This document shows, piece after piece, positions 27,234 through 64,000 of a DNA stretch of 64,000 nucleotides. The stretch lies in the IMG/VR virus record IMGVR_UViG_3300049830_000172. One strand, written 5' to 3'. Every line of letters begins with the position of its first letter. Position 1 is the stretch's first letter. Origin of the DNA: an uncultured virus (IMG/VR IMGVR_UViG_3300049830_000172). Its lineage: Duplodnaviria; Heunggongvirae; Uroviricota; Caudoviricetes. The notes under the pieces are model-generated. The model was not told the origin of the DNA and did not search any database. It saw only the letters and a program-made list of their open reading frames with translations. Position numbers and translations under genes: made by a program.

Positions 27234-27530
27234 GTGGAGATTATTTTGGATTACAAACGACTGCAAGAAATACAAGCATTACCAACACCAACTACAAAGG
27301 ATGTTGTTGAGATTACATCTGAGAATTTTTTAAGTGCAAGCAAGCATAGCAAAGACATTAAAGCCATGCTCGTTGAAATACTCGAAGGTGTCAATGATTT
27401 GAGCAGCAGGATTGCCGTGCTCGAAGCAAGACAATCCAGTATATTTCAGATTGAAGAAGGCGAAGATGTAGATGAAGAATTTGACGATGAGATGAGTCTC
27501 GAAGAAGAAATTGCTTTATCAGAAGATTAA
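27234..27530 (+). CDS. Hypothetical acidic protein
   Basis: 98-aa ORF. Confidence 0.6.
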   Translation: MEIILDYKRLQEIQALPTPTTKDVVEITSENFLSASKHSKDIKAMLVEILEGVNDLSSRIAVLEARQSSIFQIEEGEDVDEEFDDEMSLEEEIALSED

Positions 27531-28312
27531 TTTACGTCGCCAAGATTGTGTCTAAATTCAAATTCTTTGTCACAGTCAAAACAGCCGAACATATTTTCAC
27601 CCATTGGATAAATTTTCTCACTCTCACAAGCTGGACACATAATGACTAAAAATCCATCATTGTCGATTCGCCAATTTTTCTTATCTTGGTGAACAAGGTT
27701 ATCCGCCGCAGTTAACACGATACCACTGACCGAATTTTTAGTGGTATCGAAATCGGCTTCAATTAACCCAATAGCCCGCATACCCTCGACACTTAACTCA
27801 CCCTCGGCAGCAGCATCGCCAAGCATATCAATAACTTCAGCGTCGAAATTATGCACTTCGCCATCTTCATCTTCAATAAGAAATGTTGTAACACCGTGTC
27901 TTGTGTGACTGACTTCTTTGATGGTGTTTGCCAATTCCTTCGTTGTGTCATCGTGCTCTTTATCGCCAGAGTCAATGTAGCCCTCTTTGCTCGTTCCTCG
28001 GTTTTTAATAACGTCTTGGTCAGTTAATCGAAATGCTGGTGCCGATGCCGCTCCAGTGTTTTCGTATAAATCAATTGCAAGAGCAATTCGAGCATTAAGA
28101 TTATCAACTGGTGTCACGGCAGCTTTCAAACATGCGGCTGCTATTCGCTTAGCTGCATAAAGACCGTTCATGGGCATAATGCCAACTCTGTCCCAAAAAT
28201 ACGTCTGTAGCTCTTTTAGACATGCTGCTGCATCTACATCAAGCGATTTGATATCAGCGTCAAGAGTTGTTTTAAATGTTGTTTGTCCACGGAGAATGTT
28301 TGCGTCACTCAT
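27527..28312 (-). CDS. Hypothetical protein with C-terminal Zn ribbon
   Basis: CPAC...CFDC; TATAAC 7 nt before ATG. Confidence 0.7.
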   Translation of the reverse strand: MSDANILRGQTTFKTTLDADIKSLDVDAAACLKELQTYFWDRVGIMPMNGLYAAKRIAAACLKAAVTPVDNLNARIALAIDLYENTGAASAPAFRLTDQDVIKNRGTSKEGYIDSGDKEHDDTTKELANTIKEVSHTRHGVTTFLIEDEDGEVHNFDAEVIDMLGDAAAEGELSVEGMRAIGLIEADFDTTKNSVSGIVLTAADNLVHQDKKNWRIDNDGFLVIMCPACESEKIYPMGENMFGCFDCDKEFEFRHNLGDVN

Positions 28313-35130: not shown

Positions 35131-35709
35131 ATGAAAACATTGGCTTTCACGGGGCATCGCCCAAAAGACCTTGGCGGATATGATGAAGATAATCCAACTG
35201 CGCTAAAAGTTCAACGTCAATTAAGAACGATGATTATTCAGGCTTATGAATCGGGATATCGTACTTTCATAACAGGCATGGCAATGGGCGTTGACCAATG
35301 GGCGGGACATTGTGTGGCTGATTTAAAGCCAGAGCATCCTGATATTAAGTTGATAGCAGCGATTCCATTTGTAAGTCAACCAACTGTTTGGACACTGGGA
35401 AGCAGAGCCTCTTGGCAAGTTATATTATCAAATTGTGATGAGATTTATGTTGTGGATACTAACCCTAATGAAATTATTTCAATGAAAGATGTTCTAAGAG
35501 ATTCAAAAGTGCCGTCTGAAGACCCGAAATATTTGATTTCCAAGAAGTTGAACGATAGAAATAAATGGATGGTTGATAGAGCGGATTGTATGTTGGCGGT
35601 TTGGAGACATACTAAGGGTGGAACTGGAAATTGTGTCGAATATGCTATTTCAAAGGGCAAAACTGTCATTGCTTACAATCCAGACGATGATAGTGTTGTA
35701 AAATTATAA
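35131..35709 (+). CDS. SLOG superfamily YspA-like (DUF1273) protein
   Basis: AFTGHRP, FITGMA.GVD.W, RNKWMVD, GGT.NCV.YA. Confidence 0.85.
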   Translation: MKTLAFTGHRPKDLGGYDEDNPTALKVQRQLRTMIIQAYESGYRTFITGMAMGVDQWAGHCVADLKPEHPDIKLIAAIPFVSQPTVWTLGSRASWQVILSNCDEIYVVDTNPNEIISMKDVLRDSKVPSEDPKYLISKKLNDRNKWMVDRADCMLAVWRHTKGGTGNCVEYAISKGKTVIAYNPDDDSVVKL

Positions 35710-37935: not shown

Positions 37936-38454
37936 ATGCAAAGAAAACTCTTGATGCTCGACATTGATGGCGTTCTTAACGACCATAGAACATTGGCAAA
38001 TGGCTACTCGCAAATGAAGCACAAATGTGTTCTGGAGCTTTGTAGAATCTTAGATGAATGTCCAGATGTTAATATCATCATGTCTTCAGCATGGAGATAT
38101 ATGATGTTCGGAGAGATACCAGCCATCACAGAGAAAGGCATGGAACATATAATGTGCCTATTTGGTGCCCCGTATTTCTCCATACACGGACGAATCATTG
38201 GCAGAACGATATCTGACGAAGCAATGTGTGTTCAGCTCGGGATATCGGAGCCTGACGTTGAATTGGACTATTTGTGGTTGAAAGACAACGGGTGCTTATT
38301 GAGAAGAGAGCAGATTTTACTTTCGGCGCAGAATCATCAGTTTGTTGTACTTGATGACCTTGACATAGAAATGCCAGAGTTAGTAAGAACTGACGGCAAT
38401 GTCGGTTTAACTAAAGCTCTGGCGAATCAAGTGATTAAGCTTTTTCAGAATTAG
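37936..38454 (+). CDS. HAD-family phosphatase (Swiss-army-knife RNA repair type)
   Basis: LDIDGVLN, SSAWR, VVLDD. Confidence 0.75.
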   Translation: MQRKLLMLDIDGVLNDHRTLANGYSQMKHKCVLELCRILDECPDVNIIMSSAWRYMMFGEIPAITEKGMEHIMCLFGAPYFSIHGRIIGRTISDEAMCVQLGISEPDVELDYLWLKDNGCLLRREQILLSAQNHQFVVLDDLDIEMPELVRTDGNVGLTKALANQVIKLFQN

Positions 38455-41638: not shown

Positions 41639-41985
41639 CTTTGTGCTCCAGGAAGTCCACTCAACGTATCACCAGATAAGCGTCTCACCAACTGCTCCCT
41701 TTCTTGATAACGAGATGTTAATTCATCTTGCCACTTTTTGTAAAGAGCAATTGTGTTGGCGTTCCAACGCCCCATGTCAGCACCGCATCCATCACGAATC
41801 TTTGTGATTTCATTTTCTATAGATGTGATATTTTGATATTGAGCGGCAAGTAATTCTTTTCGAATTTCCGTCTGATTGATATTTGCTGTTTGAATTGGGT
41901 CAGCCGTAGCTGGCCCGCAGCCAGCTATCTGACAGAAGAAAATGATTGCAGTTATTACAAACATTAGAGATAAGAATGTTTTCAT
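41635..41985 (-). CDS. Lipoprotein, paralogue 2
   Basis: Lipobox IAGC; shares RK.LL.AQ..W..Y..Q..L.S.Y.ER.QL with its neighbour. Confidence 0.65.
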   Translation of the reverse strand: MKTFLSLMFVITAIIFFCQIAGCGPATADPIQTANINQTEIRKELLAAQYQNITSIENEITKIRDGCGADMGRWNANTIALYKKWQDELTSRYQEREQLVRRLSGDTLSGLPGAQR

Positions 41986-42650
41986 GATTTTTCGTTTATT
42001 TTTTCTAGTCTTGCTAAGAAACGGTCAAGCCCAATGGCAAAGCCGACGCCCTCAGCGTATGTTCCGCCGCCAACGACTTGTCGTTGAGCGCCCATGTCTG
42101 GAATCTCAATCTCAAATCCATCGCCAACATAATATGACAATCCGCGTTGTGCGCTTTTGTTTACCACCAAAATGTCCATTGGAACAAAAGCAGTAAGCAT
42201 TTCAGTTGCCATATCAATAAGCTCGTCTATGCAATTTCCACGAGGATTCAATACCTCGACGCCAAATTGCGAAAACTCGCGATATCTTCCAGATTGTGGC
42301 TGTTCGTAACGCCAACATCTTGTTTCGTAAAACAACTTGATGTCTTTGTCGTACTTGTATTTTTGAGCAATTAACTGACATGTAGCCGTTCCTTCTGGGC
42401 GTAAACAAATCTTACGACCCTTTTTATCTTCGAAACGATACATTTGACGCTCAACAAGCTCTTCGCCAACTTTGTCAGTGTAAATCTCTTCTTTTTCAAT
42501 GGACGGCAGGGTGATTTCCTGATATCCACGAGCAAGAGCAATGTCCGCCCATGTATTAATGAGTTTACGGCGAGTAGCAGCAAGGTCGCCACATAAGATG
42601 CGTGTTCCCTTAACTTGCTTATCCTCTAACTTAATTTCACCGTTAATCAT
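41982..42650 (-). CDS. Minimal histidyl-tRNA synthetase-like catalytic domain
   Basis: KGTR, LRPEGTA, WRYEQPQSGRYREFSQFGVE, RGLSYY, GGG.Y, GFAIGLDR; no anticodon-binding domain; ~222 aa. Confidence 0.8.
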   Translation of the reverse strand: MINGEIKLEDKQVKGTRILCGDLAATRRKLINTWADIALARGYQEITLPSIEKEEIYTDKVGEELVERQMYRFEDKKGRKICLRPEGTATCQLIAQKYKYDKDIKLFYETRCWRYEQPQSGRYREFSQFGVEVLNPRGNCIDELIDMATEMLTAFVPMDILVVNKSAQRGLSYYVGDGFEIEIPDMGAQRQVVGGGTYAEGVGFAIGLDRFLARLEKINEKS

Positions 42651-43197
42651 CAATTTCTTCCACAGGTTTGATAGTACCGAACGTTCCAGTCTCAGAGCCA
42701 ACTCGTGTTGCCACTCCATTATCGAAAGTATGCTCGATATGTCCAAGCGCGGGAATATTAATCGTGTATTGAGCTGTCGTTGTGTCAACAGACAATATAA
42801 AGCCGTCATATTCCACACCTCTTACTTTTACAAGTACGGCATCGCCTATGTTCTTTTGAGGAATTATCTGATTGTCAACCACCCAAAGCTTGACAGCTTC
42901 ACGATGAGCCCTGTCGATAAAAATAGTATATGAATCCAAAATGTCAACCAATTCTGAATCTGGCTCCCACATTGAATATTCAAGGCTTCGAGCAAGTTGA
43001 TATCCGTCTTTCGTATAACTATTGTGACCAATGCATTTTTTAAGTTCTGCTCGAACACCTTCGCGCTCTTCATTTGGATAATTAGCTTGTCCCGAGGATG
43101 CTGTTACCCAGTCCCATACTGATGGCATTAACAAGTCAATAGCTTGTTCGAAAATTGCGTCGTCGCTTTCTCTAGGACGCGATGGTTTTACGTTCAT
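42643..43197 (-). CDS. Hypothetical protein
   Basis: ORF in the operon; DGYQLA..LE...W.PD. Confidence 0.65.
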   Translation of the reverse strand: MNVKPSRPRESDDAIFEQAIDLLMPSVWDWVTASSGQANYPNEEREGVRAELKKCIGHNSYTKDGYQLARSLEYSMWEPDSELVDILDSYTIFIDRAHREAVKLWVVDNQIIPQKNIGDAVLVKVRGVEYDGFILSVDTTTAQYTINIPALGHIEHTFDNGVATRVGSETGTFGTIKPVEEIDD

Positions 43198-44997: not shown

Positions 44998-46236
44998 TTA
45001 GATTAATTTTGCAAATCGTCTTTTTCCAACTTTCAAGTATTTTCCGCGCCAAGCACCAATATTAGCAAAACTATCAACATTGTCAATTTTATTGCCATCA
45101 AATTCAACTGCTCCGCTTTCGATTAAACGCTTGGCTTCACTGTTTGAAAGAGCAAACCCTAGCTCAACCAACAAGAGATAAACTTTCAGTGTTTCACTGT
45201 CTGCGAGAGAAAGTATCATTTCTGGCGCTGTTTCTTGCCAATTGCGATTAGTAAATGTTTTGTTAAACTGCTCCATGGCAAATAATGCACTGTATTCATT
45301 ATGACACATTTCGACAATGTTGAAAGCGAGTTTTAGTTTCAAATCTTTTGGATTTACACCCGATTCCATGTCTTTTTTTGCATTCAGAAAGCCATCAAAC
45401 ATCAAAAGCTCCCACCAGTTGAGAATCAATTCATCTGGAATCGACATTACCTTACCAAACATATCTGTTGGTTCGTCGCGGATTGAGATGAAGTTCCCAA
45501 GTGATTGAGACATTTTGCGAGTGCCAAACCAACCAGTCAACAAGGGTGTTAAAATCACTGCTTGCGGATTCACACCAGCTTTCATCATGACATCTCTGCC
45601 AAATAAACAATTCAACCGCTGGTCGGCACCGCCAAGCTCAACGTCGCATTGTAAGTAAAGCGAATCATTACCTTGAATGACCGGGTATAGGATTTCATGC
45701 AAACCAATCGAATTGTTTGATTTTAATCTGGAATCAAAATCTTTTCGCTCCAAAATCTGCGCAACAGTCACTGATGAACACATTTCTAAGAACTCTTGAG
45801 TGCTTGTTTTTTCCCATAGAGCGGAATTCCAAAATACATGTAGCTTATCGGAACTCATGTCCAAAACGTTTTCAAATTGACCAATTAAAGCAAGAGAATT
45901 CAAACGAATATCTTCTTTGTCAAGTTGCTTGCGAGACACAGATTTGCCACTTGGGTCGCCAATTTGAGCAGTGAAATCACCCATAACAATAGTGACTTTG
46001 TGTCCCAAGTCCTGAAGCTTGCGCAAACGAATCAATGACACCATCCAGCCAAGATGCAATTCGGTCGCAGTTGGGTCAACACCGAACTTGATTATCAAAG
46101 CGTCTTTTGATAAGAAACGCTGCACTAAATCGGATGACGCATTCGTTTCGCTGGTAATGACCTCACAACCATCAAAGACTTTTAAAAAATCATCTACCTT
46201 TGCAGCCACGCTCATTGCTCTACTAATGGAACTCAT
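44998..46236 (-). CDS. tyrS: Tyrosyl-tRNA synthetase
   Basis: G.DPTA..LHLGW, GDFTA.IGDPSG, YP..QG.D, ELGG.DQ, KMSQSLGN, C-terminal S4 domain. Confidence 0.92.
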   Translation of the reverse strand: MSSISRAMSVAAKVDDFLKVFDGCEVITSETNASSDLVQRFLSKDALIIKFGVDPTATELHLGWMVSLIRLRKLQDLGHKVTIVMGDFTAQIGDPSGKSVSRKQLDKEDIRLNSLALIGQFENVLDMSSDKLHVFWNSALWEKTSTQEFLEMCSSVTVAQILERKDFDSRLKSNNSIGLHEILYPVIQGNDSLYLQCDVELGGADQRLNCLFGRDVMMKAGVNPQAVILTPLLTGWFGTRKMSQSLGNFISIRDEPTDMFGKVMSIPDELILNWWELLMFDGFLNAKKDMESGVNPKDLKLKLAFNIVEMCHNEYSALFAMEQFNKTFTNRNWQETAPEMILSLADSETLKVYLLLVELGFALSNSEAKRLIESGAVEFDGNKIDNVDSFANIGAWRGKYLKVGKRRFAKLI

Positions 46237-46844: not shown

Positions 46845-47433
46845 ATAAATATCCTGATTCGACAAAGCGACGACGAACTTCAGCGCGGTATAGAAATTCT
46901 TGAATTATCTCTTGAAGATTTGGCTCTGACAAAGAATCGCTAAATATTTTGTCTACTTTTGACATGCTTGTAAAACTTTCAGAACGGGAATATGAAGCAC
47001 CGGGATATATCCCATCTATATTCCACGCATGTGTTGAATTTGATTCTGTCGGAGCGCTTTTTCCATTGTGATGGCTTTTCCACAAACACTTCTCACATAA
47101 GGAAAACATATCGAGAGTAACACCATGAAGACTCCAACCAAAAATAAAATACGTTGCACTATGATTGTTTTGACCGTTGTCGTATTTATATGGTGACACC
47201 TCAATATTCAGCTCATCAGCAAAAGCGCAAGTGAGAGCAACGAACTTTTCCCAACATTCCTGAGAAAGTTTCAATTTTTCTTTTCGCTCTTGCTCCCATA
47301 ACACAAACAATTTAGCTTGATTGGCAAACCAGTGTGGCTCGTTTTTTTCCAGAGCAAAAGTAGTGCTTACAATCGCATCGCCGTAAATACTCCGCGACGT
47401 TTCATTTTCCTTTTGACGCTTGAATATCTTCAT
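46837..47433 (-). CDS. Hypothetical protein
   Basis: 198-aa ORF. Confidence 0.6.
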   Translation of the reverse strand: MKIFKRQKENETSRSIYGDAIVSTTFALEKNEPHWFANQAKLFVLWEQERKEKLKLSQECWEKFVALTCAFADELNIEVSPYKYDNGQNNHSATYFIFGWSLHGVTLDMFSLCEKCLWKSHHNGKSAPTESNSTHAWNIDGIYPGASYSRSESFTSMSKVDKIFSDSLSEPNLQEIIQEFLYRAEVRRRFVESGYLYD

Positions 47434-48071
47434 ATAGAGCTTTCTTCAAACTCCACTTTGTATCCAGTCTTGTTGAAATCATCGCGCACAGTTGAATTTA
47501 TGGCAGCAGTGTCGCGACACTTAATTTTCAATACACCATCGTTAAAACTAATAGACTTGATTCCATTCTTGCCTAAATACTTCTTACCTAAATCAGAAGT
47601 AGCTTTGGCAGCCTCTTTATTGTTAATATGCTCACTTCTTTCAACCAAGTGTAAAGCACTTGTGGCAAAATCACCAGTCTTGTAGTATCGCGCAACTCGG
47701 TAATATTCGTCAGATGGGACGAAACCAGCTTCCGTCAAGGCACGCTGATGATGGATGAAATGAAGCATGGACAGAACTCCGTGTAAATCATTTGGCTGTC
47801 TGCCAAGTAATACAATCAAAGATGCAATGTCGTCTTCTGGGTTTAGCGATGGAGAAAAGACTTGACTGTGGTATGGAGTGGGATGATAAACTAAAAACCC
47901 CTGACTGTTGAAAGTCTCAAAAAATGGATAAACTCCAACTTGTAACTTATGCGCCTCGAAATCATAACGCAACGAATCATCGAGCTTTTTCCAACCCATT
48001 ACCTCAATGGCAATGCGCGTATCAAAGGCTATCTGCTCTGATGTTATTGTCAAGTTAGCTGATTTTAACAT
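47430..48071 (-). CDS. Hypothetical protein (possible phage ABA-sandwich domain)
   Basis: D..IA..VMGW...FSPS. Confidence 0.5.
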   Translation of the reverse strand: MLKSANLTITSEQIAFDTRIAIEVMGWKKLDDSLRYDFEAHKLQVGVYPFFETFNSQGFLVYHPTPYHSQVFSPSLNPEDDIASLIVLLGRQPNDLHGVLSMLHFIHHQRALTEAGFVPSDEYYRVARYYKTGDFATSALHLVERSEHINNKEAAKATSDLGKKYLGKNGIKSISFNDGVLKIKCRDTAAINSTVRDDFNKTGYKVEFEESSI

Positions 48072-54572: not shown

Positions 54573-54613
54573 TAAGTACAGTATACTAGAAACAAATCAG
54601 TTTTGAGGAAAAT

Positions 54614-56103: not shown

Positions 56104-57039
56104 ATGAGAGGAGAGCGTATCGTCAGGACAGTCATGAGTAAAAACATACCAATGTTCGCTACAAGCGAGCCTTACATTCCTATCGGCAAACACCTTCTTT
56201 TAACAGACACACTCGAAGTAGGTGAAACCTACGCGAAATATAGCCGAGATATTGCAGTAAAAGCATATGTGCTGTGCAGAGAAGAGGAAATTTACCCATC
56301 TATCATTGACCCAGAGGAATTATTAATTCCAGGATTAGGCATTGGAGTGAAGCCAGTCATTCCGCGCAAGAACGTACCTGTGCATTCCTACAACCTTAAA
56401 GACCGCGCAAAAGTGAGGTCACTCAACACGTTGGAAAGATTAGAAGACACAGAGGTGTTTAAACTTATTAACGCAGCATGTCCATCTGACCAAATGCTGA
56501 CAGTTGAGGATGAGTTTTTGCCAAAATACATTACGCGATGTTTTGCAATGCTCGAAGGTCATGAATTAACCCCAGGTGCAATCGTTATGCATCCAGTCAG
56601 ATTTGCCGAAATGAGAGAATGGAATCACCCTAAATTTAAAGAATGGGCGAAAACACCAGACTTTGTACATCGAGCTGAATTTTATGATGTGAAAGTATTT
56701 ACATCAACCATGTGCCCAAAGAACGCCATTTATGTGGTGGCTAACCCACAATACATTGGAGTCGTCGTTGAATATGAACCAATCACAGAAAAAGAATATG
56801 CAGAAGACGATAAGAATAGAGATGGAATCGTTTTTCGAAAAAGATTGGGATTCGGTATTATAAACGATTACGCATGCACAAGAATTTTGTTGCAATGTCC
56901 AAGTTCATTCAAAACAGACTTAGATAGAAAACAAGAAGCAGAGCGCAAAGAAAAAGAAACTCCTAAAGCATCAGCAGAAGTTCCATTCATTCCAGCGCAA
57001 CAAGACACCGGGAAGAAGAAAAAAGGTTGGCTTGGCTGA
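56104..57039 (+). CDS. Major capsid protein-like paralogue (HK97 fold)
   Basis: LL.TDTL..G....Y.RDI.V.A, P...I...P, YN..DRA......ED..VF..I.AA, S..CP...IYVVA.P..IG, G.....LG.GI.N pattern seen in large-phage capsid proteins. Confidence 0.6.
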   Translation: MRGERIVRTVMSKNIPMFATSEPYIPIGKHLLLTDTLEVGETYAKYSRDIAVKAYVLCREEEIYPSIIDPEELLIPGLGIGVKPVIPRKNVPVHSYNLKDRAKVRSLNTLERLEDTEVFKLINAACPSDQMLTVEDEFLPKYITRCFAMLEGHELTPGAIVMHPVRFAEMREWNHPKFKEWAKTPDFVHRAEFYDVKVFTSTMCPKNAIYVVANPQYIGVVVEYEPITEKEYAEDDKNRDGIVFRKRLGFGIINDYACTRILLQCPSSFKTDLDRKQEAERKEKETPKASAEVPFIPAQQDTGKKKKGWLG

Positions 57040-57330
57040 ACGTAAATTATACGTCAATAACTGCGCGAAATTTGGGAAAGGGGTACTAAAACTTAGATAC
57101 CATACCCCCTCCCCCTATGCGATTTTTGAGATTTATTTAGCTTCAAAAAATTTATAAAATTAAATTTTTAGAAATCGAGAGGCAAAAAGGGAATTCGATA
57201 TTTTTTAATACCCACCCCTATCCGTGTGTAGCTAATTGTCGAATGGGACTCCGAAAAAATTGGCGGGTGGTGGAACACCCTTCCTTATGGAACCTAAATT
57301 GTGAGTGTACCGGGGGGGTAGTTGGCCGTG
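57040..57330. other. Non-coding convergence zone with G/C runs; possible genome terminus/packaging region
   Basis: No ORF; ataccccctccccct, AT-rich core, gggactcc, ccgggggggtag; lies at the border of the promoter-cassette region. Confidence 0.35.
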
Positions 57331-57465
57331 TGGCCTATGCTGCCTATAGTGCTTATGCTATGGTGCCGCCTTGGTACACATACACATAGACGGGTGGCTT
57401 GCCAGTCGTAGGCAAGCTCCTGTCATAGACTGGACTTAATCGCCAGTCAGTGGGTTGCTACCACT
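57330..57465 (-). ncRNA. Candidate small RNA A (three tandem hairpins)
   Basis: TCCTCA-N16-CGATAT motif with +1 about 57465; only a 5-codon ORF; stems AGTGG/CCACT, GACTGG/CCAGTC, GCTTGCC/GGCAAGC; 3' end uncertain. Confidence 0.4.
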
Positions 57466-57483
57466 ATCTATATATCGCCGTTG

Positions 57484-57636
57484 CTAAACGTATTGAGGAA
57501 TTTTTGTACGTGTTCCCCAGCCGAGCTGAATGTCGTAGGGAACGTGGAAAGCCTTGGGTTGCGTGAAGCCGAGTCGTGGGTTTCGCCCCGTAATCTTGTA
57601 CGGCTTGCTGATTATACCATTTCTGCATGTGAACAT
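57484..57636 (-). other. Promoter-driven transcript: 50-aa leaderless ORF or structured RNA
   Basis: ATG at +1 of a GCGTAT-type motif (MFTCRNG...PQYV); several nested stems are also possible. Confidence 0.4.
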
Positions 57637-57671
57637 AGTAATATACGCTCACATGAATTAAGTTTGAGGAA

Positions 57672-57833
57672 TTAAAAGTGGAAGCCGAGATAATGGCAGA
57701 CGACGTAAAGCCAGCCAAAGAGGGTATGGAGCGCAGTCCAACCGATATCGTGGGTGATATCCCAAGTGACGATGCCAGCCCACACCATGCCGATGAGCGA
57801 GAATAAACCAATGCCAGAAGATTTTGATTCCAT
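57672..57833 (-). CDS. Small membrane protein
   Basis: MESKSSGIGLFSLIG...W...H..FGWLYV; variant promoter motif upstream. Confidence 0.65.
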   Translation of the reverse strand: MESKSSGIGLFSLIGMVWAGIVTWDITHDIGWTALHTLFGWLYVVCHYLGFHF

Positions 57834-57870
57834 ATTATCTATATATGGAATCAAAATCTGTTTTTGAGGA

Positions 57871-58200
57871 TTATTCGTCGTCGTCATCGTCGTCGTCGTG
57901 AAGGAATTGAATCCCTCGCGCTAAACTTGCGCCAAAGTCGCGTCCACATTCCTTGAGGATATCCGGGCCGCTGACGTGGAGTCCTTGAATATCATTTAGA
58001 TAGGTGTCGCCCAAGTCCGAACCGCCGTGGGTGTGTGGTGAGGAAACTTCACAAAAAGCTATGGCATAATGGTTTTTTGCCGCTAGTTCTGGCCGTTGGT
58101 TGAGTTTGAGAATGTTCCAAGTCCAGCCGTTTGTTGATTTATAGACTGCGTAAGGGTCGCCTTGCTTTCTTGTTTTTCCGTATGGGTTTGATGAAGCCAT
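57871..58200 (-). CDS. Hypothetical early protein (leaderless)
   Basis: ATG at +1 of the motif; acidic tail. Confidence 0.75.
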   Translation of the reverse strand: MASSNPYGKTRKQGDPYAVYKSTNGWTWNILKLNQRPELAAKNHYAIAFCEVSSPHTHGGSDLGDTYLNDIQGLHVSGPDILKECGRDFGASLARGIQFLHDDDDDDDE

Positions 58201-58243
58201 GAATATATACTCAGGTGGGCGAAAACTTTGAGGAAAATTGGGA

Positions 58244-58489
58244 ACGGCGAGTTTTTCTTAACTCGCCGTTTTGTGCCCGTCCATTTGTCGTTTTGGATTC
58301 ACCATTGAATCCATACTCATGAGTCATTGGGAATTTGCCAATATTTCCTTATTGTCTGAACGTGTCGCGATTCACGTTTCTGGCATGGCGAACATTAAAA
58401 GTTTTTGACCGTGTTGGTTGTTGACGTTTTATTACTTCATGATGCTCACTCCCTTATCTAGTTGCTAGGCGCTTCCAATATTGGGCGTT
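58244..58489 (-). ncRNA. Candidate structured RNA B (~245 nt)
   Basis: ACGTAT-type motif; no long ORF; hairpins AACGTG/CACGTT, TGGATTCA/TGAATCCA, ATTGG/CCAAT; terminal hairpin AACGGCGAGTT/AACTCGCCGTT. Confidence 0.5.
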
Positions 58490-58605
58490 GAGTATATACG
58501 TCGTTCGTTGCTTGGTTTGAGGAATTTAGCTTTTGGGCGCGTGCCGCCTTATTTCGCCAAGTCTTATTCCCGGATGTTCTAGTCCGGGAATTTTCCTCAA
58601 AAGTC

Positions 58606-59085
58606 CTAGTGGACTTCGAGGATATTTTCGACGCTGATTCCGACGAACGGTACTTGTCCCTTGTCGGCTAGTTCTTCCTTGTCCTGTGGCTTGGACTTTT
58701 CAGAGGCTTGGAGGTACATTTCTACGTCTGCCTTGTCGCAAGGTTCGCCGTCCAAGTACCATTGTACTTTTGGTTTGGCTCCACTTAGGGGCATAGGCAA
58801 GTACACCTTGTCAGTGTTACCACGCCAAAACTTGACGTTGCCAACCATGAATGACTCCTTAATATGGCTTGGAAGCTCAGGGGCGGCTCGTTCTCCGTCT
58901 GCGACTGCATTTTTGACTGCGGCTCGTGCTGAGTAGTCACAAAGTTGTCCAGTCATAGTTGATTCCTTATCAACTACCAGGTTCTTAAAAGCGGCTAAGA
59001 GCTTGGCTGGTCGTTTCATTTTGATTGAGAAGAAGGCTCCTGTTTTTCGTCCTTCGAGTGCTTTAGAGATGCTTACTGCGTCCAT
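58606..59085 (-). CDS. Hypothetical early protein (leaderless)
   Basis: True start MDAVSISK at +1 of the motif. Confidence 0.75.
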   Translation of the reverse strand: MDAVSISKALEGRKTGAFFSIKMKRPAKLLAAFKNLVVDKESTMTGQLCDYSARAAVKNAVADGERAAPELPSHIKESFMVGNVKFWRGNTDKVYLPMPLSGAKPKVQWYLDGEPCDKADVEMYLQASEKSKPQDKEELADKGQVPFVGISVENILEVH

Positions 59086-59193
59086 GTATATATACTCAGG
59101 TGAGAGAAAATCTTGAGGAAAAAATAAGACTTGGCGAAATAAGGCGCGTGTAAAATTTTTGGATATTGAGGAATTTTGATATATTGACACAAC

Positions 59194-59308
59194 AAAAAGC
59201 CCAAGCTATTGCCTGGGCTTATTTGCGTAAGTTCTCGTTTCCTGTGCCTGTTTCGGGGAGCTGTATTTCAAGCTTCTTCATGTTTCTTGTTTACTTGTTT
59301 CTGCTTAC
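59194..59308 (-). ncRNA. Candidate small RNA C (~115 nt, A-rich, GAAAC repeats)
   Basis: ACGTAT-type motif, terminator AAGCCCAGG/CTTGGGCTT with T run; only a 20-codon ORF without SD. Confidence 0.4.
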
Positions 59309-59351
59309 ATTTATATACGTTGTTCTTTTTAAGTCTTGAGGAAATTTGGTC

Positions 59352-59524
59352 ACAACCCACTGAAGACTACTGACTCTATTTTATTTTCCGCTTTTTTGCG
59401 CGGGTTTTATTTTTGTCGTCTCCACCCATGCTCTACAGTCCTACGCATATCTTTTGGTATAAGCGATATCATGTTCCTAGACATGAGCCCTTTCGGGTGA
59501 ACACCTCATCTTCAGCAGGTTGTT
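59352..59524 (-). ncRNA. Candidate structured RNA D (~173 nt)
   Basis: GCGTAT-type motif; 15-bp closing stem ACAACCTGCTGAAGA/TCTTCAGTGGGTTGT with G-U pairs; internal CCC-GAAA-GGG and CATGT/ACATG hairpins. Confidence 0.6.
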
Positions 59525-59536
59525 AATTTTATACGC

Positions 59537-59755
59537 TTATGCGACTTCTTCTTGAGGAAATTCTTCTTGCATCGCTGGAAACTCATTGGCTGGGATTACA
59601 TAGCGTGGCATTGTTTTAGGAGGTGTTACACCTGCGACTCCTTCAATGTGAACGCTTCGCCCGCATTGACATTGCACCATTAAGACGTATCTTTGCCCTC
59701 TGGGGCGGTTTTTAACCGCCTTTTGGACTACTGCGCCACATTTAGGACATTTCAT
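59537..59755 (-). CDS. Small Zn-ribbon protein
   Basis: MKCPKC...CQCG; ATGA overlap. Confidence 0.65.
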   Translation of the reverse strand: MKCPKCGAVVQKAVKNRPRGQRYVLMVQCQCGRSVHIEGVAGVTPPKTMPRYVIPANEFPAMQEEFPQEEVA

Positions 59756-59922
59756 AGATAGAACTCCGAATCTGCGCCGTTTTGGATTTCGCCTAAGATT
59801 TTGGCTTCTACGCAACCCTGAGCGTCTGAGGTTGTCATTCCTTCGAGCCCGTCCATCTCTAGGACTTCAACAGCTTTCTTGTATTTGTCCCAGTTCATTC
59901 GAGAGTAGTCAATATGTACCAC
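59752..59922 (-). CDS. Small hypothetical protein (leaderless GTG)
   Basis: GTG at +1; EGMTTSDAQG. Confidence 0.65.
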   Translation of the reverse strand: MVHIDYSRMNWDKYKKAVEVLEMDGLEGMTTSDAQGCVEAKILGEIQNGADSEFYL

Positions 59923-59955
59923 TCTTATATACTGAGATGGATATAAAATTTGAGG

Positions 59956-60073
59956 AAAAATGAGAATGCCCAAGTCATTACTGCTTGGGCTCCTTCTCCA
60001 TATACTGGTCAGCATGGTGTCGTATCAAGAGATTATGGTTTAGGCTCCTTACGTTTCCTTCTCTATTGCTGCC
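59956..60073 (-). ncRNA. Candidate small RNA E (~118 nt, AAGGA-rich)
   Basis: GCGTAT-type motif; hairpin GCCCAAG/CTTGGGC then T run; four GGA motifs. Confidence 0.45.
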
Positions 60074-60112
60074 ATCTATATACGCGCTTGAGTCCGTTGG
60101 TTGAGGATTTTT

Positions 60113-60403
60113 TTAAGCACAGGCAATTTCTTCTTCAAACTTTTGTGCTTCTTCGCAGGCTTTTTCAGCTTCACGGATGTTATCCTCGGTTGGTTGGCGT
60201 CCGTCCACCATGAACAATTCGTAGATATCCAATTTCTTTGCAGATGGTACACCAGAGAGAAACAATTTGTATGCTTCTGATTGTCCGTCTCTTCGCTTCC
60301 AAAGATAACCGCCTTCCTCGTAGTGTGCAGGAAATGCCGTGTCTTTTGAGTCGTATCCCTTTGGTCTCGTTGGTGCTAATATTTCGAGGGCGATTGTTGC
60401 CAT
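60113..60403 (-). CDS. Hypothetical early protein (leaderless)
   Basis: ATG at +1. Confidence 0.7.
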   Translation of the reverse strand: MATIALEILAPTRPKGYDSKDTAFPAHYEEGGYLWKRRDGQSEAYKLFLSGVPSAKKLDIYELFMVDGRQPTEDNIREAEKACEEAQKFEEEIACA

Positions 60404-60480
60404 GATTATCTACTCATATGAATAGATAAGTATGAGGAATAAATATTCCTCATACCAGTGAAATGTTTCAGTATATAGAC

Positions 60481-60681
60481 ATGACAGACAAACAAATAGT
60501 TTTAGGATTTATAATCGGAGTTTGCTTGATTATCCTAAACATCTTGAATGAGAAAAATAAGCAGAGGCAAAGAGAAATAGAGGTGAATTCCTCTTTTCGA
60601 AGGATTCTTGATAGACTCGTTGATGCTGGAGAAATAACAAAAGAGAACGCAGACAATATGTATGTGAAAAGTTTGAAATAA
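60481..60681 (+). CDS. Small membrane protein (leaderless, divergent)
   Basis: Plus-strand motif TCCTCA-N16-CAGTAT-N6-ATG; N-terminal TM. Confidence 0.7.
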   Translation: MTDKQIVLGFIIGVCLIILNILNEKNKQRQREIEVNSSFRRILDRLVDAGEITKENADNMYVKSLK

Positions 60682-60770
60682 GCCTACGGGCTTGTTTCAA
60701 TTTGCCGTTAGGGTCGCGGGCGTGCCGCCTTATTTGTCCAAGCCTTAAATTTCTTTAAGGCTTGGAGTTT

Positions 60771-60992
60771 TTAGTCCCCGTCGTAAGTACCTGGCCCATT
60801 TTCTTCTTCATATTGGGCGCGGGTTCCCATTGGCATTGTTTCTCCGCAACCGTCGCGGAAGCCACTAACAGCGCATGGTACACACATTACGCCAGCGTAG
60901 ACACCAAAGCTATATCGCTCGTCTATGTCTTTTCGCTTCTTGTCACATCGAGGGCATACGCCGCTTGCTAATACGTCACTGAGATAACTCAT
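60771..60992 (-). CDS. Small Zn-binding protein (leaderless)
   Basis: CPRC...CVPC; ATG at +1. Confidence 0.7.
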   Translation of the reverse strand: MSYLSDVLASGVCPRCDKKRKDIDERYSFGVYAGVMCVPCAVSGFRDGCGETMPMGTRAQYEEENGPGTYDGD

Positions 60993-61007
60993 GATTTTAT
61001 ACTCTGC

Positions 61008-61157
61008 TCAGTAAGTTTTTTGAGGAATTTGGATTGAATGACTTCCTGGGCAAAATGTTTCCATGGTGCCATTATCCTTTATTCTTTTTGGGGAATGTGG
61101 ATAGATTGCATTATCAATATCAGTGCGGCATTTTTTACCGCACTGTGGACAAATCAC
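61008..61157 (-). CDS. 49-aa Zn-binding microprotein (not in the ORF track)
   Basis: GTG start 1 nt after the upstream stop: MICPQCGK...PH...CPGS. Confidence 0.55.
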   Translation of the reverse strand: MICPQCGKKCRTDIDNAIYPHSPKRIKDNGTMETFCPGSHSIQIPQKTY

Positions 61158-61158
61158 C

Positions 61159-61386
61159 TTAGAGTCCATATTTCGCCCTGAGTTCCATCACAATATCAGG
61201 TCGCTCGTTTAAGAGTTGAAGCAATCCCGTATTGTTGAAAATGAAGTGATGCTCAATACCGTGAACTTTCAGGTATTCACCCGTGAGAGTAGTTTGGCGA
61301 GGAGCGTCACAAGGTTCGTTCATATCTTCGAGAACAGCTCGCATTTTGTCTGCTACTGTCATGTTGTCGAAATCTGTGTTTGACAT
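61159..61386 (-). CDS. Hypothetical early protein (leaderless)
   Basis: ATG at +1. Confidence 0.7.
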   Translation of the reverse strand: MSNTDFDNMTVADKMRAVLEDMNEPCDAPRQTTLTGEYLKVHGIEHHFIFNNTGLLQLLNERPDIVMELRAKYGL

Positions 61387-61421
61387 GATTATATACTCTT
61401 CTCAGTAATTTTTTGAGGATT

Positions 61422-61739
61422 TTAGAGTTCTATCTCTTCGTACTTCGTGACTTTGTGATGCACCGTCAAGCTTGCGAGGTTTACGGTATATTCTTTTCTG
61501 AGAAACACTTTCAACGTTTCAACACATGCAGCTTTCACAATTACGCCATCAATTTGTCCAAACTCTTCTTCATCAAAGTTAACAACATACTCTTTGACGC
61601 GATGGATGTTTCGCATATAAACTTTCATTTCATCTTGTGAAAATGATGTCTTATTTGCTAAAAGAGTGAGCAACCAATCATTTCCCGCGTCTACGGCTTT
61701 GAGTTCTGCTTCGCTCCAGAGTCTTACTGTGATGGACAT
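61422..61739 (-). CDS. Hypothetical early protein (leaderless)
   Basis: True start MSITVR at +1. Confidence 0.7.
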   Translation of the reverse strand: MSITVRLWSEAELKAVDAGNDWLLTLLANKTSFSQDEMKVYMRNIHRVKEYVVNFDEEEFGQIDGVIVKAACVETLKVFLRKEYTVNLASLTVHHKVTKYEEIEL

Positions 61740-61872
61740 GATTATATACTCATATGAGTTAATAAGTTGAGGAATAAGTTCGGCGCGTGCCGCCTTATTT
61801 GTCCAAGCACTAAAAATTTCAGACACAAAAAAGCTCACCTTTCGATGAGCCTTTTCATTTTGGGGATTTTGG

Positions 61873-62202
61873 TTAGTAGGCGGTTGGATATTTACCGTTT
61901 ATGATTTGAAGCGTTTGTCGGTCAAGTTTGGATTGATTGCTTTTTCTTGCTTTTTGTTTTTTGGGGATAAAGCTCCAAAGTGCCATGCAAGCCAAGCCAA
62001 GAACCACAAGTCCAGCCAAACCTTCAACTGCGTAGATTCCATAGACGAACAATCGACCGATGATTGTTGGGGTTCCAGATGAGTCGTTGGATAGGAACGG
62101 GTCTACCCATTTGATGGTCGATGCAACGATAGCCGTGAGGATTGTTGCGAGTCCGATGATTGCGAGGCTTCCAACTGTTCTGTTGATTGCTTGATTGTTC
62201 AC
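61873..62202 (-). CDS. Two-TM membrane protein (leaderless GTG)
   Basis: GTG at +1; terminator-like hairpin near 61827-61857. Confidence 0.7.
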   Translation of the reverse strand: MNNQAINRTVGSLAIIGLATILTAIVASTIKWVDPFLSNDSSGTPTIIGRLFVYGIYAVEGLAGLVVLGLACMALWSFIPKKQKARKSNQSKLDRQTLQIINGKYPTAY

Positions 62203-62239
62203 TCTTATATACTCCTATGGGTGAAAATGTTGAGGAATT

Positions 62240-62509
62240 TTATGAGAAGTAAGCGTATTCTACGCGGGCGGTGGTTACAGTGTGCCAGCCCATAGTAATG
62301 AAAATTGGGTAATCGTATCCAATGACTTCCTCATTGATTTTACCATCATGTCCGCAGTACATACCATCGAGGGCAGTGGCAACGTACTTACTTATTTTAG
62401 CAGCTTCATCTAACCATTGTTGCAACGGGACATTAGTTCCGATTGCGTTTAATTGTTTGTTCAGACTGTTGAGCAGACTTTTCTTTGTCTGTTTTTTCGG
62501 TGCGTCCAT
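62240..62509 (-). CDS. Hypothetical early protein (leaderless)
   Basis: True start MDAPKK at +1. Confidence 0.7.
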   Translation of the reverse strand: MDAPKKQTKKSLLNSLNKQLNAIGTNVPLQQWLDEAAKISKYVATALDGMYCGHDGKINEEVIGYDYPIFITMGWHTVTTARVEYAYFS

Positions 62510-62519
62510 GATTATATAC

Positions 62520-63008
62520 TCAGAAGAACACATTATTTGAGGAAATTCTCTTGGTGAAGTCAAAGTCTTTATGAGAATGAACTAATTCAATTTCAGATGT
62601 CAGTAAAGGGCAAACTTTGTGACAACCATATATTGCTTTATATTCTCCATCTATTGCAAGTACAAAAAGCGAAGCATAATTTTCCTCGTTTTTGTAATAG
62701 AATCCATTGGCAAGTAGGAATTCTCCGTAGGTTTTATCTTTTGTCCAAGTTTTATCTTTTGCGGAATTGTTAAACTCTTCCAAGTCAATGAATGGAGGAT
62801 TGTGATGATTTATGAAATCTGATTCAAAGATTTCTCTGAGATTTTTTCTCCATCCAGCGGTTAAATTGTCGCTTGGTGAAATGTTAAATGCTTTGAGTCT
62901 TTCAACCATTTCCGAAGTATTGTCTTCGCCAATACTATTCATGATGGATGTAATTTCTTGAGAATCTGTGATTAAGGCAAACTCATCACTCAATTCATTA
63001 ACTTGCAT
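62520..63008 (-). CDS. Hypothetical early protein (leaderless)
   Basis: ATG at +1. Confidence 0.7.
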   Translation of the reverse strand: MQVNELSDEFALITDSQEITSIMNSIGEDNTSEMVERLKAFNISPSDNLTAGWRKNLREIFESDFINHHNPPFIDLEEFNNSAKDKTWTKDKTYGEFLLANGFYYKNEENYASLFVLAIDGEYKAIYGCHKVCPLLTSEIELVHSHKDFDFTKRISSNNVFF

Positions 63009-63088
63009 GATTATATACTCACATGAATAAAGAAGTTGAGGAATTTCCTGGCGCGTGCCCCCTTATTTCACCAAGCACTAAAAAAATT

Positions 63089-63163
63089 TGGTCGGGGATA
63101 GAAGATTCGAACTTCTGATTTCTTGCTCCCAAAGCAAGCGCCATACCGCTTGGCTAATCCCCG
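63089..63163 (-). tRNA. tRNA-Pro(TGG)
   Basis: CGGGGAT/ATCCCCG acceptor stem, anticodon arm CTTGC-TTTGGGA-GCAAG, TTCGAAT T-loop, encoded CCA. Confidence 0.93.
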
Positions 63164-63288
63164 GTAAGAACTTTTCCATTTCAACCCTGGGCTCTATCAG
63201 GAGCTTAGTCTTGCTACTTTGCTGATACTTTCACTGCATCGGTCACTCCAGGGCATCCCTGACAACTTTTGCACTGGATTCGTTCTAT
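63164..63288 (-). ncRNA. Candidate structured RNA F, co-transcribed upstream of tRNA-Pro
   Basis: GCGTAT-type motif; GCCCTGG/CCAGGGT, TGTCAGGG/TCCTGATA and GATGC/GTATC pairings. Confidence 0.45.
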
Positions 63289-63325
63289 GAATATATACGC
63301 GATTGGGAATTTGCTTTGAGGATTT

Positions 63326-63703
63326 TTAGCTGGGCATTTCTGGGATTGTAAGTTTGTAACTTTTTGCGAAGACGCGCAAGCATCCTTCCCATTCTTCGGG
63401 GTCTTCAGAATCATGGATTTCTTGAAGTTCTTCGGCAAATTCTGAATCCAATTGAAGTCTTTCAAGAATTGGTCTCAGAGTTGTACCACCGACGCGCTCG
63501 CCTTCCATTTCCGGGCTATATTCTTCGTCAGTGATTAATGCGCCAATTGCGCATTTTGTGCCGTCTGGTGCGCGATACAGGCAACCTTCATTTTTATGAC
63601 CAGCGCGAGGTGGGCTAACTTCTCCCCAGGCTCTTTTCTTCTGAGTGAGAAGATGGACGTAAACGATATTAAAGGCATTTTGTTCTGGAGTTGGTTCGCT
63701 CAT
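63326..63703 (-). CDS. Conserved phage hypothetical protein, paralogue 1
   Basis: CLYR..DG.KCAIGALI.DE.Y.PEMEG...LQ.IHD. Confidence 0.75.
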   Translation of the reverse strand: MSEPTPEQNAFNIVYVHLLTQKKRAWGEVSPPRAGHKNEGCLYRAPDGTKCAIGALITDEEYSPEMEGERVGGTTLRPILERLQLDSEFAEELQEIHDSEDPEEWEGCLRVFAKSYKLTIPEMPS

Positions 63704-63705
63704 GA

Positions 63706-64000
63706 TTATCTCTTTGCTGGCATTTCTGGAATTTCAAGCTGATATTTTTGTGCGAATTCAGCTAATTCTCTTTTCCATCCAAGAGGGTGAGTGTTGTCAT
63801 GAATTGCTTGCAGTAAAATCATAAAAGATGCGCCGACTCCAAGTTTGGTTAGAACATTTGCAAAAATGTCTCGCTCTGCGTATTGACCTTCCATTTCTGG
63901 TAAATAATCTTCGTCGGGGATAACAGCACCAAAAGCGCACTTTGTGCCATTTTGTCCACGATAAGCGCAAACATTGATTTTCTTATCGTAGGTGACGCCG
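63706..64000 (-). CDS. Conserved phage hypothetical protein, paralogue 2 (5'-truncated by the window edge)
   Basis: CAYRGQNGTKCAFGAVIPDEDYLPEMEG...LQAIHD. Confidence 0.75.
   Translation of the reverse strand, partial: GVTYDKKINVCAYRGQNGTKCAFGAVIPDEDYLPEMEGQYAERDIFANVLTKLGVGASFMILLQAIHDNTHPLGWKRELAEFAQKYQLEIPEMPAKR

Follow-up and report, generated by a model that had tools for sequence, protein, structure and literature searches.

The 64-kb window analyzed here is part of a 122,477-nucleotide (nt) contig of an uncultured tailed virus (IMGVR_UViG_3300049830_000172) from freshwater metagenomes. Near its end, it carries a dense array of promoter-like sites. Probably, this is an early array of cassettes like the PeSL cassettes of T4-type phages, with either a leaderless gene or a small RNA as cargo. 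Each cassette would consist of a two-block promoter (TTCCTCAA, a 16-nt spacer, N(A/C)GTAT, six A/T-rich bases and a purine start) followed by its cargo. A gene would be the cargo in 11 cassettes; as transcription is predicted to start on the A or G that opens its start codon, the message would be leaderless. Behind promoters with C as the second hexamer base, the cargo would be a tRNA-Pro precursor, one of the folded RNAs B4 and B2, or a short terminator-closed unit (B3, B6 and possibly B0). The RNAs would be made alongside early proteins and act in trans, and cassettes would be gained and lost between relatives at promoter or repeat boundaries, as is the case for the PeSL of T4-type phages.

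A preliminary description of the region had reported one promoter-like motif in two flavours. When the whole window was scanned, TCCTCA-N15-17-NNGTAK matched 18 times; 100 shuffled sequences averaged 0.51 matches and never gave more than 4. All but one of these matches (17/18) were located in 57.6-63.3 kb, 16 on the minus strand and one on the plus strand (60447); the remaining one was found at 54583-54609. The spacer was 16 nt in 15 of the 17 array sites and in one further site with CGATAT as hexamer, 15 nt at 61419 and 17 nt at 60438. As had been claimed, the sites of the region with the hexamer N-A-G-T-A-K (A sites) were followed by ATG or GTG exactly 6 nt past the hexamer, in 11/11 cases (0.01 expected). 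These start codons opened open reading frames (ORFs) of 56-162 amino acids (aa), with predicted 5' ends. The A promoters and their genes, identified by motif and ORF where nothing else is given, were as follows.

57871..58234, minus strand: A promoter and leaderless gene, 109 aa
58606..59119, minus strand: A promoter and leaderless gene, 159 aa, kept in relatives (56% aa identity to two genes of the relative L002)
59752..59956, minus strand: A promoter (CAGTAT) and leaderless GTG gene, 56 aa
60113..60438, minus strand: A promoter (GAGTAG) and leaderless gene, 96 aa, with a homologue in L002
60447..60681, plus strand: A promoter (CAGTAT) and leaderless gene, 66 aa, the sole plus-strand copy
60771..61026, minus strand: A promoter and leaderless gene, 73 aa
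61159..61419, minus strand: A promoter and leaderless gene, 75 aa
61422..61773, minus strand: A promoter and leaderless gene, 105 aa
61873..62236, minus strand: A promoter and leaderless GTG gene, 109 aa, with a homologue in L002
62240..62543, minus strand: A promoter and leaderless gene, 89 aa
62520..63042, minus strand: A promoter and leaderless gene, 162 aa

The lone A site without a start codon at +1 (TAGTAT at 54609, with ATG 10 nt past the hexamer) lies outside 57330..63322, the region of the preliminary description. Codon scores, from a model trained on the long genes of the phage, were positive for 14/15 early ORFs tested (0.08-0.39 per codon). The array is real, highly non-random and promoter-like, with leaderless geometry at the A sites. 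Its two conserved blocks, mostly 16 nt apart, correspond to the layout of a sigma-70-type promoter, in which the spacing is fixed at about 17 bp, and in the larger of two relatives the spacer was 16 nt in 42/42 sites. The A variant GAGTAT keeps A(-11) and T(-7), the C variant is without A(-11), and the -35 box is unlike TTGACA. The identity of the sites as promoters and the starts and ends of the transcripts are predictions throughout. The idea that read-through transcripts use the GAG of the A variant as a remnant Shine-Dalgarno sequence was not adopted, as two A sites read CAG. The promoters at 60447 (plus) and 60438 (minus) stand back to back at 60429-60456, where their -35 boxes make up a 12-bp palindromic hairpin.

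Sites with NCGTAT (C sites) occurred six times (0.06 expected), with -35 boxes starting at 57670, 58523, 59342, 59558, 60107 and 63322, and only the site at 57670 had a start codon at +1 (ATG, 50-aa ORF). A seventh site without the A, TCCTCA-N16-CGATAT at 57499-57472, falls outside the NNGTAK pattern. All seven belong to the same minus-strand array as the A sites, so the earlier count of seven such copies, six of them without a start codon at +1, was confirmed. Sorted by the second hexamer base, a start at +1 was present or absent at 11 and 1 A sites and at 1 and 5 C sites, respectively (Fisher, two-sided p=0.0039). The A/C split is real in this genome. The promoters, found by motif scan except for that of B0 (read from the sequence), and the units behind them are listed below.

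57472..57499, minus strand: promoter-like site B0, TCCTCA-N16-CGATAT, predicted +1 at 57465
57255..57465, minus strand: unit B0, 211 nt, no ORF, with hairpin and T-run at 57280-57265 (fold; RNA status ambiguous)
57643..57670, minus strand: C promoter B1 (GCGTAT), +1 at 57636
57484..57636, minus strand: B1, 50-aa ORF from the predicted +1
58496..58523, minus strand: C promoter B2 (ACGTAT), +1 at 58489
58235..58489, minus strand: predicted B2 RNA of about 255 nt, with an 11-bp hairpin and then CCCAAUUUU at its 3' end (fold and covariation)
59315..59342, minus strand: C promoter B3 (ACGTAT), +1 at 59308
59190..59308, minus strand: unit B3, about 119 nt, 20-aa ORF followed by a strong intrinsic terminator at 59220-59197 (fold, terminator scan)
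59531..59558, minus strand: C promoter B4 (GCGTAT), +1 at 59524
59347..59524, minus strand: predicted B4 RNA, about 178 nt (fold, covariation, conservation)
60080..60107, minus strand: C promoter B6 (GCGTAT), +1 at 60073
59957..60073, minus strand: unit B6, 117 nt, no ORF of note, hairpin GCCCAAG...CTTGGGC with a weak T-run (fold)
63295..63322, minus strand: C promoter B7 (GCGTAT), +1 at 63288
63089..63288, minus strand: B7 tRNA-Pro precursor, 125-nt leader 63288-63164 and tRNA-Pro(UGG) 63163-63089 (ARAGORN, Rfam)

In B7, the tRNA-Pro(UGG) scored 68.3 bits with Rfam family RF00005 (gathering score 29), and ARAGORN agreed; the tRNA encodes its CCA, which is followed by AAUUUUUUU (U-run). It lies on the minus strand 125 nt downstream of the B7 +1, so that one of the units indeed includes a tRNA-Pro, as had been noted. 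For the other units, fold z-scores against dinucleotide shuffles were -2.85 (B0), +0.68 (B1), -2.90 (B2), -3.18 (B3), -4.80 (B4) and -2.52 (B6), and -1.63 for the B7 leader, compared with -1.41 to +0.81 for the first 180 nt of ten leaderless genes. The B units folded better than these 10 coding controls (Mann-Whitney p=0.0034). The claim of hairpin-rich, protein-free units was thereby upheld for the set, with B1 as the exception, and the further claim that the 50-aa ORF of B1 can also fold was not borne out, since B1 showed no excess structure. Closure of several units by terminator-like hairpins held in part: the consensus scan flagged minus-strand terminators only for B3 (59220-59197) and B0 (57280-57265), and B2 and B6 had strong terminal hairpins with weaker T-runs. 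Apart from the tRNA, a covariance search with Rfam, one of the checks proposed at the outset, gave no match of B0-B6 reaching the gathering score, and ARAGORN found no transfer-messenger RNA (tmRNA) in the window or the relatives. Local alignment of all pairs among 15 non-coding units yielded only one significant pair, B4 and its orthologue (z=49; next 4.1). B0 is complementary at its 5' end to 17 nt at the 3' end of B4, but this was dropped, as a match of that length is estimated to be at about chance level in 7 kb. The predicted leaderless messages have nothing but AUG(G) in common at their starts, so that a small RNA antisense to a shared 5' end would find no target there.

The relatives used for comparison were two metagenome contigs, L001 (2.2 kb) and a contig of 21.4 kb (L002-L006). 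They were obtained by searching metagenome contigs for a 35-nt repeat, D4, that had been missed in the preliminary description. D4 sits between terminators and -35 boxes and precedes several of the latter. Its copies are listed below.

58536..58570: D4 repeat, 35 nt (GGCGCGTGCCGCCTTATTT..CCAAG on the plus strand), just upstream of a -35 box on the minus strand
60717-60751, 61782-61816 and 63050-63084: other D4 copies (repeat families D1-D4)
59123-59146: inverted D4 copy, I1 (repeat search)

This was the sole search that yielded relatives. Megablast of 57000-64000 against 50,697 phage records gave no near relative, and the capsid protein returned only itself from a set of 5.8 billion proteins and nothing from viral contigs. 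Nor were relatives found with the promoter pattern in viral and metagenome contigs, with D4 in viral and genome contigs, with the B4 core and the relative-type promoter in viral contigs, or by alignment of the conserved 159-aa protein against viral and genome contigs. Since the sequence was identical in four DNA runs from three studies, with zero variant letters, covariation at the population level was not usable.

The 21.4-kb relative has the same architecture, with 42 CCTCA-N16-hexamer sites, of which 29 are fused to ATG (ORFs of 51-466 aa) and 13 are not. On reading of the sequence, 8/13 non-fused sites were judged to precede units that have no convincing ORF, measure about 140-340 nt and mostly end in a terminator. 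The consensus of the relative, GATATATAATCATG, is one base shorter than GAGTATATAATCATG of the window. By eye, a decent Shine-Dalgarno match was present at only about a quarter of the inspected ATG-fused sites, and about 17/42 promoters were preceded by the GCAC end of D4, mostly 6 nt before TCCTCA. Homologues in the relative were found for 4/17 early window proteins (42-56% identity). The array of the relative also contains a leaderless 303-aa ArdC-like protein of anti-restriction type (ArdC N-terminal domain and zincin peptidase; L002 9300-10211, minus), as would suit an early region. At L002 12834 (minus) and 12874 (plus), two promoters diverge from adjacent positions, both heading non-coding units of about 270-340 nt with strong terminators.

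B4 was the best-conserved DNA of the region, repeats aside. The window segment 59347-59558 was 73.5% identical to L002 2676-2885 over 219 nt (nhmmer E=4e-17), including an invariant core of 20 nt (59444-59425) and a promoter that in L002 reads CCTCA-N16-CATATA. In the predicted fold, the 5' and 3' ends are held together by a 16-bp helix that starts one base past the predicted +1; GACCA comes after this helix, and inner hairpins are enclosed by it. Folding of both sequences with RNAalifold showed that 35/35 pairs form in each, five with compensatory and four with one-sided (G-U) changes. In comparison, controls with the pairing partners slid by 1-3 columns had 30-43% of cells paired and no compensatory change. 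Folding energies were -53.7 kcal/mol for the minus strand and -42.8 kcal/mol for the plus strand. Since the G-U pairs and the advantage of 11 kcal/mol both favour the minus strand, B4 would be an RNA of the strand that its promoter faces. The comparison points to B4 being a conserved structured RNA.

The same G-U pairs bear on the idea that the helices are features of the DNA, i.e., terminal inverted repeats of mobile elements, protein binding sites or origin structures. Inverted repeats of 15-16 nt do flank B4, which is absent from L001; D4 moves relative to promoters, and inverted copies of it flank one gene; and B0, which contains short GCATAG repeats, has its better fold on the plus strand. 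However, four pairs of B4 alternate G-U with G-C or C-G, which a minus-strand RNA can accommodate, whereas an RNA of the opposite strand would have A-C mismatches and the DNA would be mismatched as well, and the inner hairpins of B4 and B2 covary as well. With the energy difference between the strands added, an explanation at the DNA level is barely credible.

The termini of B4 were inspected further. The NACCA tail is GACCA in B4 and AACCA in the L002 orthologue, and the L002 unit at 6441, which is unrelated to B4, has an 11-bp helix between its 5' and 3' parts followed by AACCA; yet CCAAAT is likewise seen ahead of -35 boxes, at places where an RNA would not be expected to end. Searching with a covariance model of B4 revealed no paralogues, the only strong matches being B4 itself and its orthologue; weak matches limited to the ends were obtained with the 3' hairpin of B2 (E=0.007) and the L002 unit at 6441 (6.1 bits). 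ARAGORN and the Rfam tRNA and tmRNA models detected no T-arm or cloverleaf in B4 or the L002 units. The modelled ACCA tail is suggestive of tRNA-like termini. The small RNAs RNAC and RNAD of phage T4 have tRNA-like ends.

B2 has three collinear blocks in common with L002 and L001, and three hairpins are shared with L002 7195-7062 and L001 586-719. For a 130-nt block, which was picked after the similarity had been seen, the three sequences supported 21 pairs, nine of them with compensatory changes. 95% of the cells were paired (3/63 unpaired), as compared with 30-46% after sliding, and 0/500 shuffles reached the observed covariation. B2 thus behaves, in this comparison, as a conserved structured RNA. 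The homologue alignment that had been suggested as a check came out in favour of the RNAs, with the helices of both B4 and B2 kept through compensatory changes in the relatives, and the two may be new, comparatively supported phage RNA families.

All three versions of B2 carry a strong Shine-Dalgarno sequence and an ORF of 2-4 codons that starts with ATG AAG, the layout of a minigene. In the window it reads as follows.

58432..58453, minus strand: Shine-Dalgarno GGGAG and mini-ORF ATG AAG TAA, within B2 (sequence)

At the matching place, L002 and L001 read GGAGGGTGAAC(C) ATG AAG ATG ACG TAG. The bar minigenes of phage lambda follow the pattern Shine-Dalgarno, AUG, one to three codons and stop, and are associated with peptidyl-tRNA drop-off and host toxicity. 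B2 likewise combines a strong Shine-Dalgarno with 2-4 codons; unlike in lambda bar, its putative mini-ORF would sit inside a folded RNA of 255-320 nt.

Such ORFs raise the alternative that the B units are short mRNAs with 5' leaders for tiny proteins or mini-ORFs (50 aa in B1, 20 aa in B3, 2-4 codons in B2), with the folds being structures of untranslated regions. The B1 ORF begins exactly at +1, the B3 ORF scores +0.21 per codon with the terminator directly after it, and Shine-Dalgarno and ATG AAG ... stop are kept in B2 and relatives. Against this, the 25-aa ORF of B4 has lost its ATG in L002 and the 38-aa ORF of B2 has an in-frame TAA there; the ORFs of B1, B2 and B4 score about zero or below on codon usage; and tblastn gave 0 matches in the relatives for the small ORFs of the B units (four ORFs), as compared with 4/17 early proteins matching. 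Moreover, compensatory changes extend across the units, beyond leaders, and the product of B7 is a tRNA. As a general account of the units, short mRNAs are rather improbable.

It is very improbable that the B units are decayed cassettes or spacers, with drifting junk behind promoters killed by the A-to-C change. From general knowledge of the A at -11, a C at this key position should disable a sigma-70-type promoter; the B7 leader has ATA at the place of the start codon followed by 23 open codons; and B3 and B4 are each missing from one relative. However, the identical change at 6/6 sites, with -35 boxes and spacing intact, argues against decay, as do the conservation of B4 and the helices kept in B4 and B2. 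Furthermore, the tRNA gene has to be transcribed from some promoter, and none other than the C site lies ahead of it.

The remaining units varied in how well they fit the cassette reading, and B3, B6 and B0 are plausible candidate RNAs. The B3 ORF (59281-59219) has no Shine-Dalgarno, and the terminator directly after it is the best of the region; B3 could be a small RNA or the mRNA of a small peptide. It is absent from L002 between B4 and the next gene. The 20-aa ORF of B3 reads MKKLEIQLPETGTGNENLRK and includes LPETG, a sortase-type motif, which may well be due to chance. B6 has a positional counterpart in the non-coding segment L002 3435-3191, which follows the homologous gene, with no sequence similarity; MAFFT alignment of B6, the L002 3435 unit and B0 gave nothing convincing. 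The 3' part of B0 (57370-57223) is kept in L002 569-434 (nhmmer E=5.9e-12), where it lies 3' of a protein gene, and B0 may be a boundary or terminator element rather than a small RNA. B1, with a codon score of 0.001 per codon and homologues in neither relative, is probably a small leaderless gene. Of the 6-7 small RNAs proposed in the preliminary description, the tRNA-Pro precursor, B4 and B2 find support, and the reading of the units as non-coding RNAs is partly supported.

That description had also proposed that the C-variant -10 element defines a promoter class dedicated to stable RNAs, with other kinetics or another sigma factor, and that its 6-7 products form an RNA-based takeover or anti-defence system. 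The clean split in the window favours this proposal (a start at +1 in 11/12 A and 1/6 C sites), and six sites with the identical A-to-C change and the rest at consensus look selected, not decayed. In addition, a tRNA lies behind one C site, and the B4 promoter has C at the aligned column in L002. The association did not extend to the 21.4-kb relative, where C as first hexamer letter was present in 2/29 ATG-fused and 2/13 other sites (Fisher p=0.58). The promoter of the B2 family has G in L002 and C in L001, the orthologous leaderless 159-aa gene has C in L001 and G in L002, and in the window the C site of B1 has an ORF that starts at +1. Between the two phages, the hexamers are one base apart in register, and the variable column of the relative may equal -12 instead of -11; since this offset makes the columns uncertain, the comparison just weakens the two-flavour idea. 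A dedicated promoter class is therefore not what the relative suggests, and we regard it as unlikely, albeit worth some weight. The words "early", "host takeover" and "anti-defence" come from the layout only.

Several observations weigh against an early cassette array with RNA cargo. The promoter is unlike TTGACA/TATAAT, and a generic sigma-70 scan gave 12 sites compared with 12.8 expected. The window yielded no gene for a sigma factor or an RNA polymerase. A C at the equivalent of -11 is expected to cripple a standard sigma-70 promoter, so that the C sites are perhaps weak or start elsewhere. Among the units, B0 folds better on the plus strand (-94 kcal/mol, z=-4.95), B1 combines a C site with an ORF at +1, and the codon score of the 20-aa ORF of B3 is that of 18 codons and positive. 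B2 is weak outside the chosen block, with nhmmer E=0.037 to the L002 7382 unit, and this pair was outside the top 12 of the pairwise test. Covariation came from two lineages for B4 and effectively two for B2, L001 and L002 being close, and both structures were predicted from the same sequences as were tested. In Rfam, B0-B6 had no match even with E allowed up to 10; the best non-tRNA hits had E of at least 0.29, below threshold, and non-tRNA families were not matched in the relatives either. Finally, the support as a whole consists of sequence comparison. With these points taken into account, the early cassette array remains the probable explanation.

The closest known system is that of the PeSL cassettes of T4-type phages, which combine a strong early promoter with a terminator stem-loop and undergo modular shuffling, as outlined in PMC2839356. 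Like these, the array has many copies of one promoter together with terminator stem-loops in a region of small non-essential genes, and where genes are swapped at cassette boundaries in the outline of PMC2839356, B3 and B4 are present or absent between the relatives here. A repeated promoter, terminators before promoters and content that differs at cassette borders were all found. Many cassettes here are ordered terminator, D4 repeat, promoter. Compared with the PeSL as outlined in that source, the promoter does not follow the sigma-70 consensus and is fused to the start codon, which would leave no 5' untranslated region or ribosome-binding site; the 35-nt D4 is an additional upstream element, and about 1/3 of the window cassettes have non-coding cargo.

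Small RNAs of phages provide further parallels. RNAC and RNAD of T4 are called "RNAs of yet unknown functions" and classed as late in the section of PMC9697503 used here. Like that pair, the units described here would be small stable RNAs, without an assigned role, that the phage encodes near tRNA genes (predicted in this case); unlike the late T4 RNAs, they belong to an early-type array. Searches with Rfam and with covariance models found no sequence relation of the units to RNAC or RNAD. For Pseudomonas phages, phiKZ among them, candidate non-coding RNAs were obtained by ONT-cappable-seq and Grad-seq and are mostly derived from 5' untranslated regions, according to the part of PMC10914365 considered. 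Both sets comprise short structured units between promoter and terminator, proposed as regulators there; unlike those candidates, which come from RNA data, the units of the window would stand alone behind their own promoter and are known from sequence comparison.

Leaderless transcription also has precedents. Thermus phage P23-45 reportedly uses it. As in leaderless phage transcription in general, a -10-like element was found 6-7 nt before the start codon; unlike in other leaderless phage systems, a TCCTCA -35-like box is present at a fixed 16-nt spacing, and the same promoter would be reused for RNAs. Phage transcripts "are often leaderless", as one passage of PMC5312081 puts it.

It is common to read the early regions of virulent phages as catalogues of tiny orphan proteins. 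In the present case, protein-free cassettes make up about 1/3 of the cassettes in the window and roughly 1/5 in the relative, and two of the protein-free units appear to behave as selected folded RNAs outside curated families. The lineage would offer a compact system for the role of early phage RNAs, with B4 and B2 as concrete molecules and a natural single-base promoter contrast (A/C) that is directly testable, and through it the concept of mobile promoter cassettes, known from PeSL, would come to include leaderless genes and RNA cargo. A bolder scenario, to which we would give a slim chance, is that the early array launches translation-directed RNAs together with phage tRNA and aminoacyl-tRNA synthetase genes. 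The NACCA-tailed RNAs of about 180 nt, their 5' end locked in a long helix, might act as tRNA-acceptor mimics or as decoys for tRNA-targeting host enzymes. The other folded RNA might present a strong ribosome-binding site and a two-codon minigene, and the A-to-C change in the -10 element might mark RNA cargo for separate kinetic control.

D4 showed additional features. Perfect 24-nt inverted copies (58545-58568 and 59123-59146) enclose the 159-aa gene together with its promoter. Outside the inverted copy, an orphan -35 box is present at 59172 (also missed earlier), and the order in L002 is repeat, then -35. D4 seems to move relative to promoters, and its role would be that of an upstream element of the promoter, of a binding site for a protein or of a component of the mobile cassette. 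Further copies are located 2.3-9.1 kb past position 64000 on the probable source contig; thus, the array continues beyond the window.

Weaker promoter-like sites that had gone unnoticed before were found at 57870 (CCATAT-type, before a 52-aa ORF), 55997 and 46271. A perfect 17-bp inverted repeat with a 7-nt loop at 57819-57859 overlaps the weak site at 57870 and the start of this ORF (57830-57672), which is hydrophobic; a plus-strand T-run follows the inverted repeat. Where the early array meets the capsid gene (57100-57370 and L002 430-570), there are three GCATAG-like repeats together with a C7 run and a GGGGGAGGGGG motif. The GCATAG-like repeats and the G-rich motif recur in the relative in a different order, and this boundary might function as an origin, in packaging or in termination. 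At the other end, tandem paralogous genes (63326-63703 and 63706-63999) share a 95-nt stretch with 72% identity (repeat family D5); no promoter copy lies between them, and the second runs past the window end.

Beyond the array, the window encodes a DnaE-type polymerase, a RecJ-like nuclease, a primase, a helicase, a Fic protein and a major head protein distantly like that of Bacillus phage G. The polymerase matched actinophage and other DnaE-type phage genes at just 32-36%. On balance, the source would be a novel uncultured freshwater tailed phage, with 57.1-64 kb as part of its early, hyperplastic region. The ribonucleotide reductase (74-3862) contains an intein with a LAGLIDADG domain. Also encoded are a tyrosyl-tRNA synthetase (TyrRS) and a class II synthetase core or fragment like histidyl-tRNA synthetase (HisRS) (41982-42818; 44998-46236), and a HAD domain of "Swiss army knife" RNA-repair proteins (37936-38454). 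Four genes outside the early array (27527-28312, 35131-35709, 37936-38454 and 47430-48071) have motifs of the (G/A)GTGTATAA or GAGTATAC type 6-7 nt before ATG, without a TCCTCA box, and these motifs may represent a second, -35-less class of leaderless promoters.

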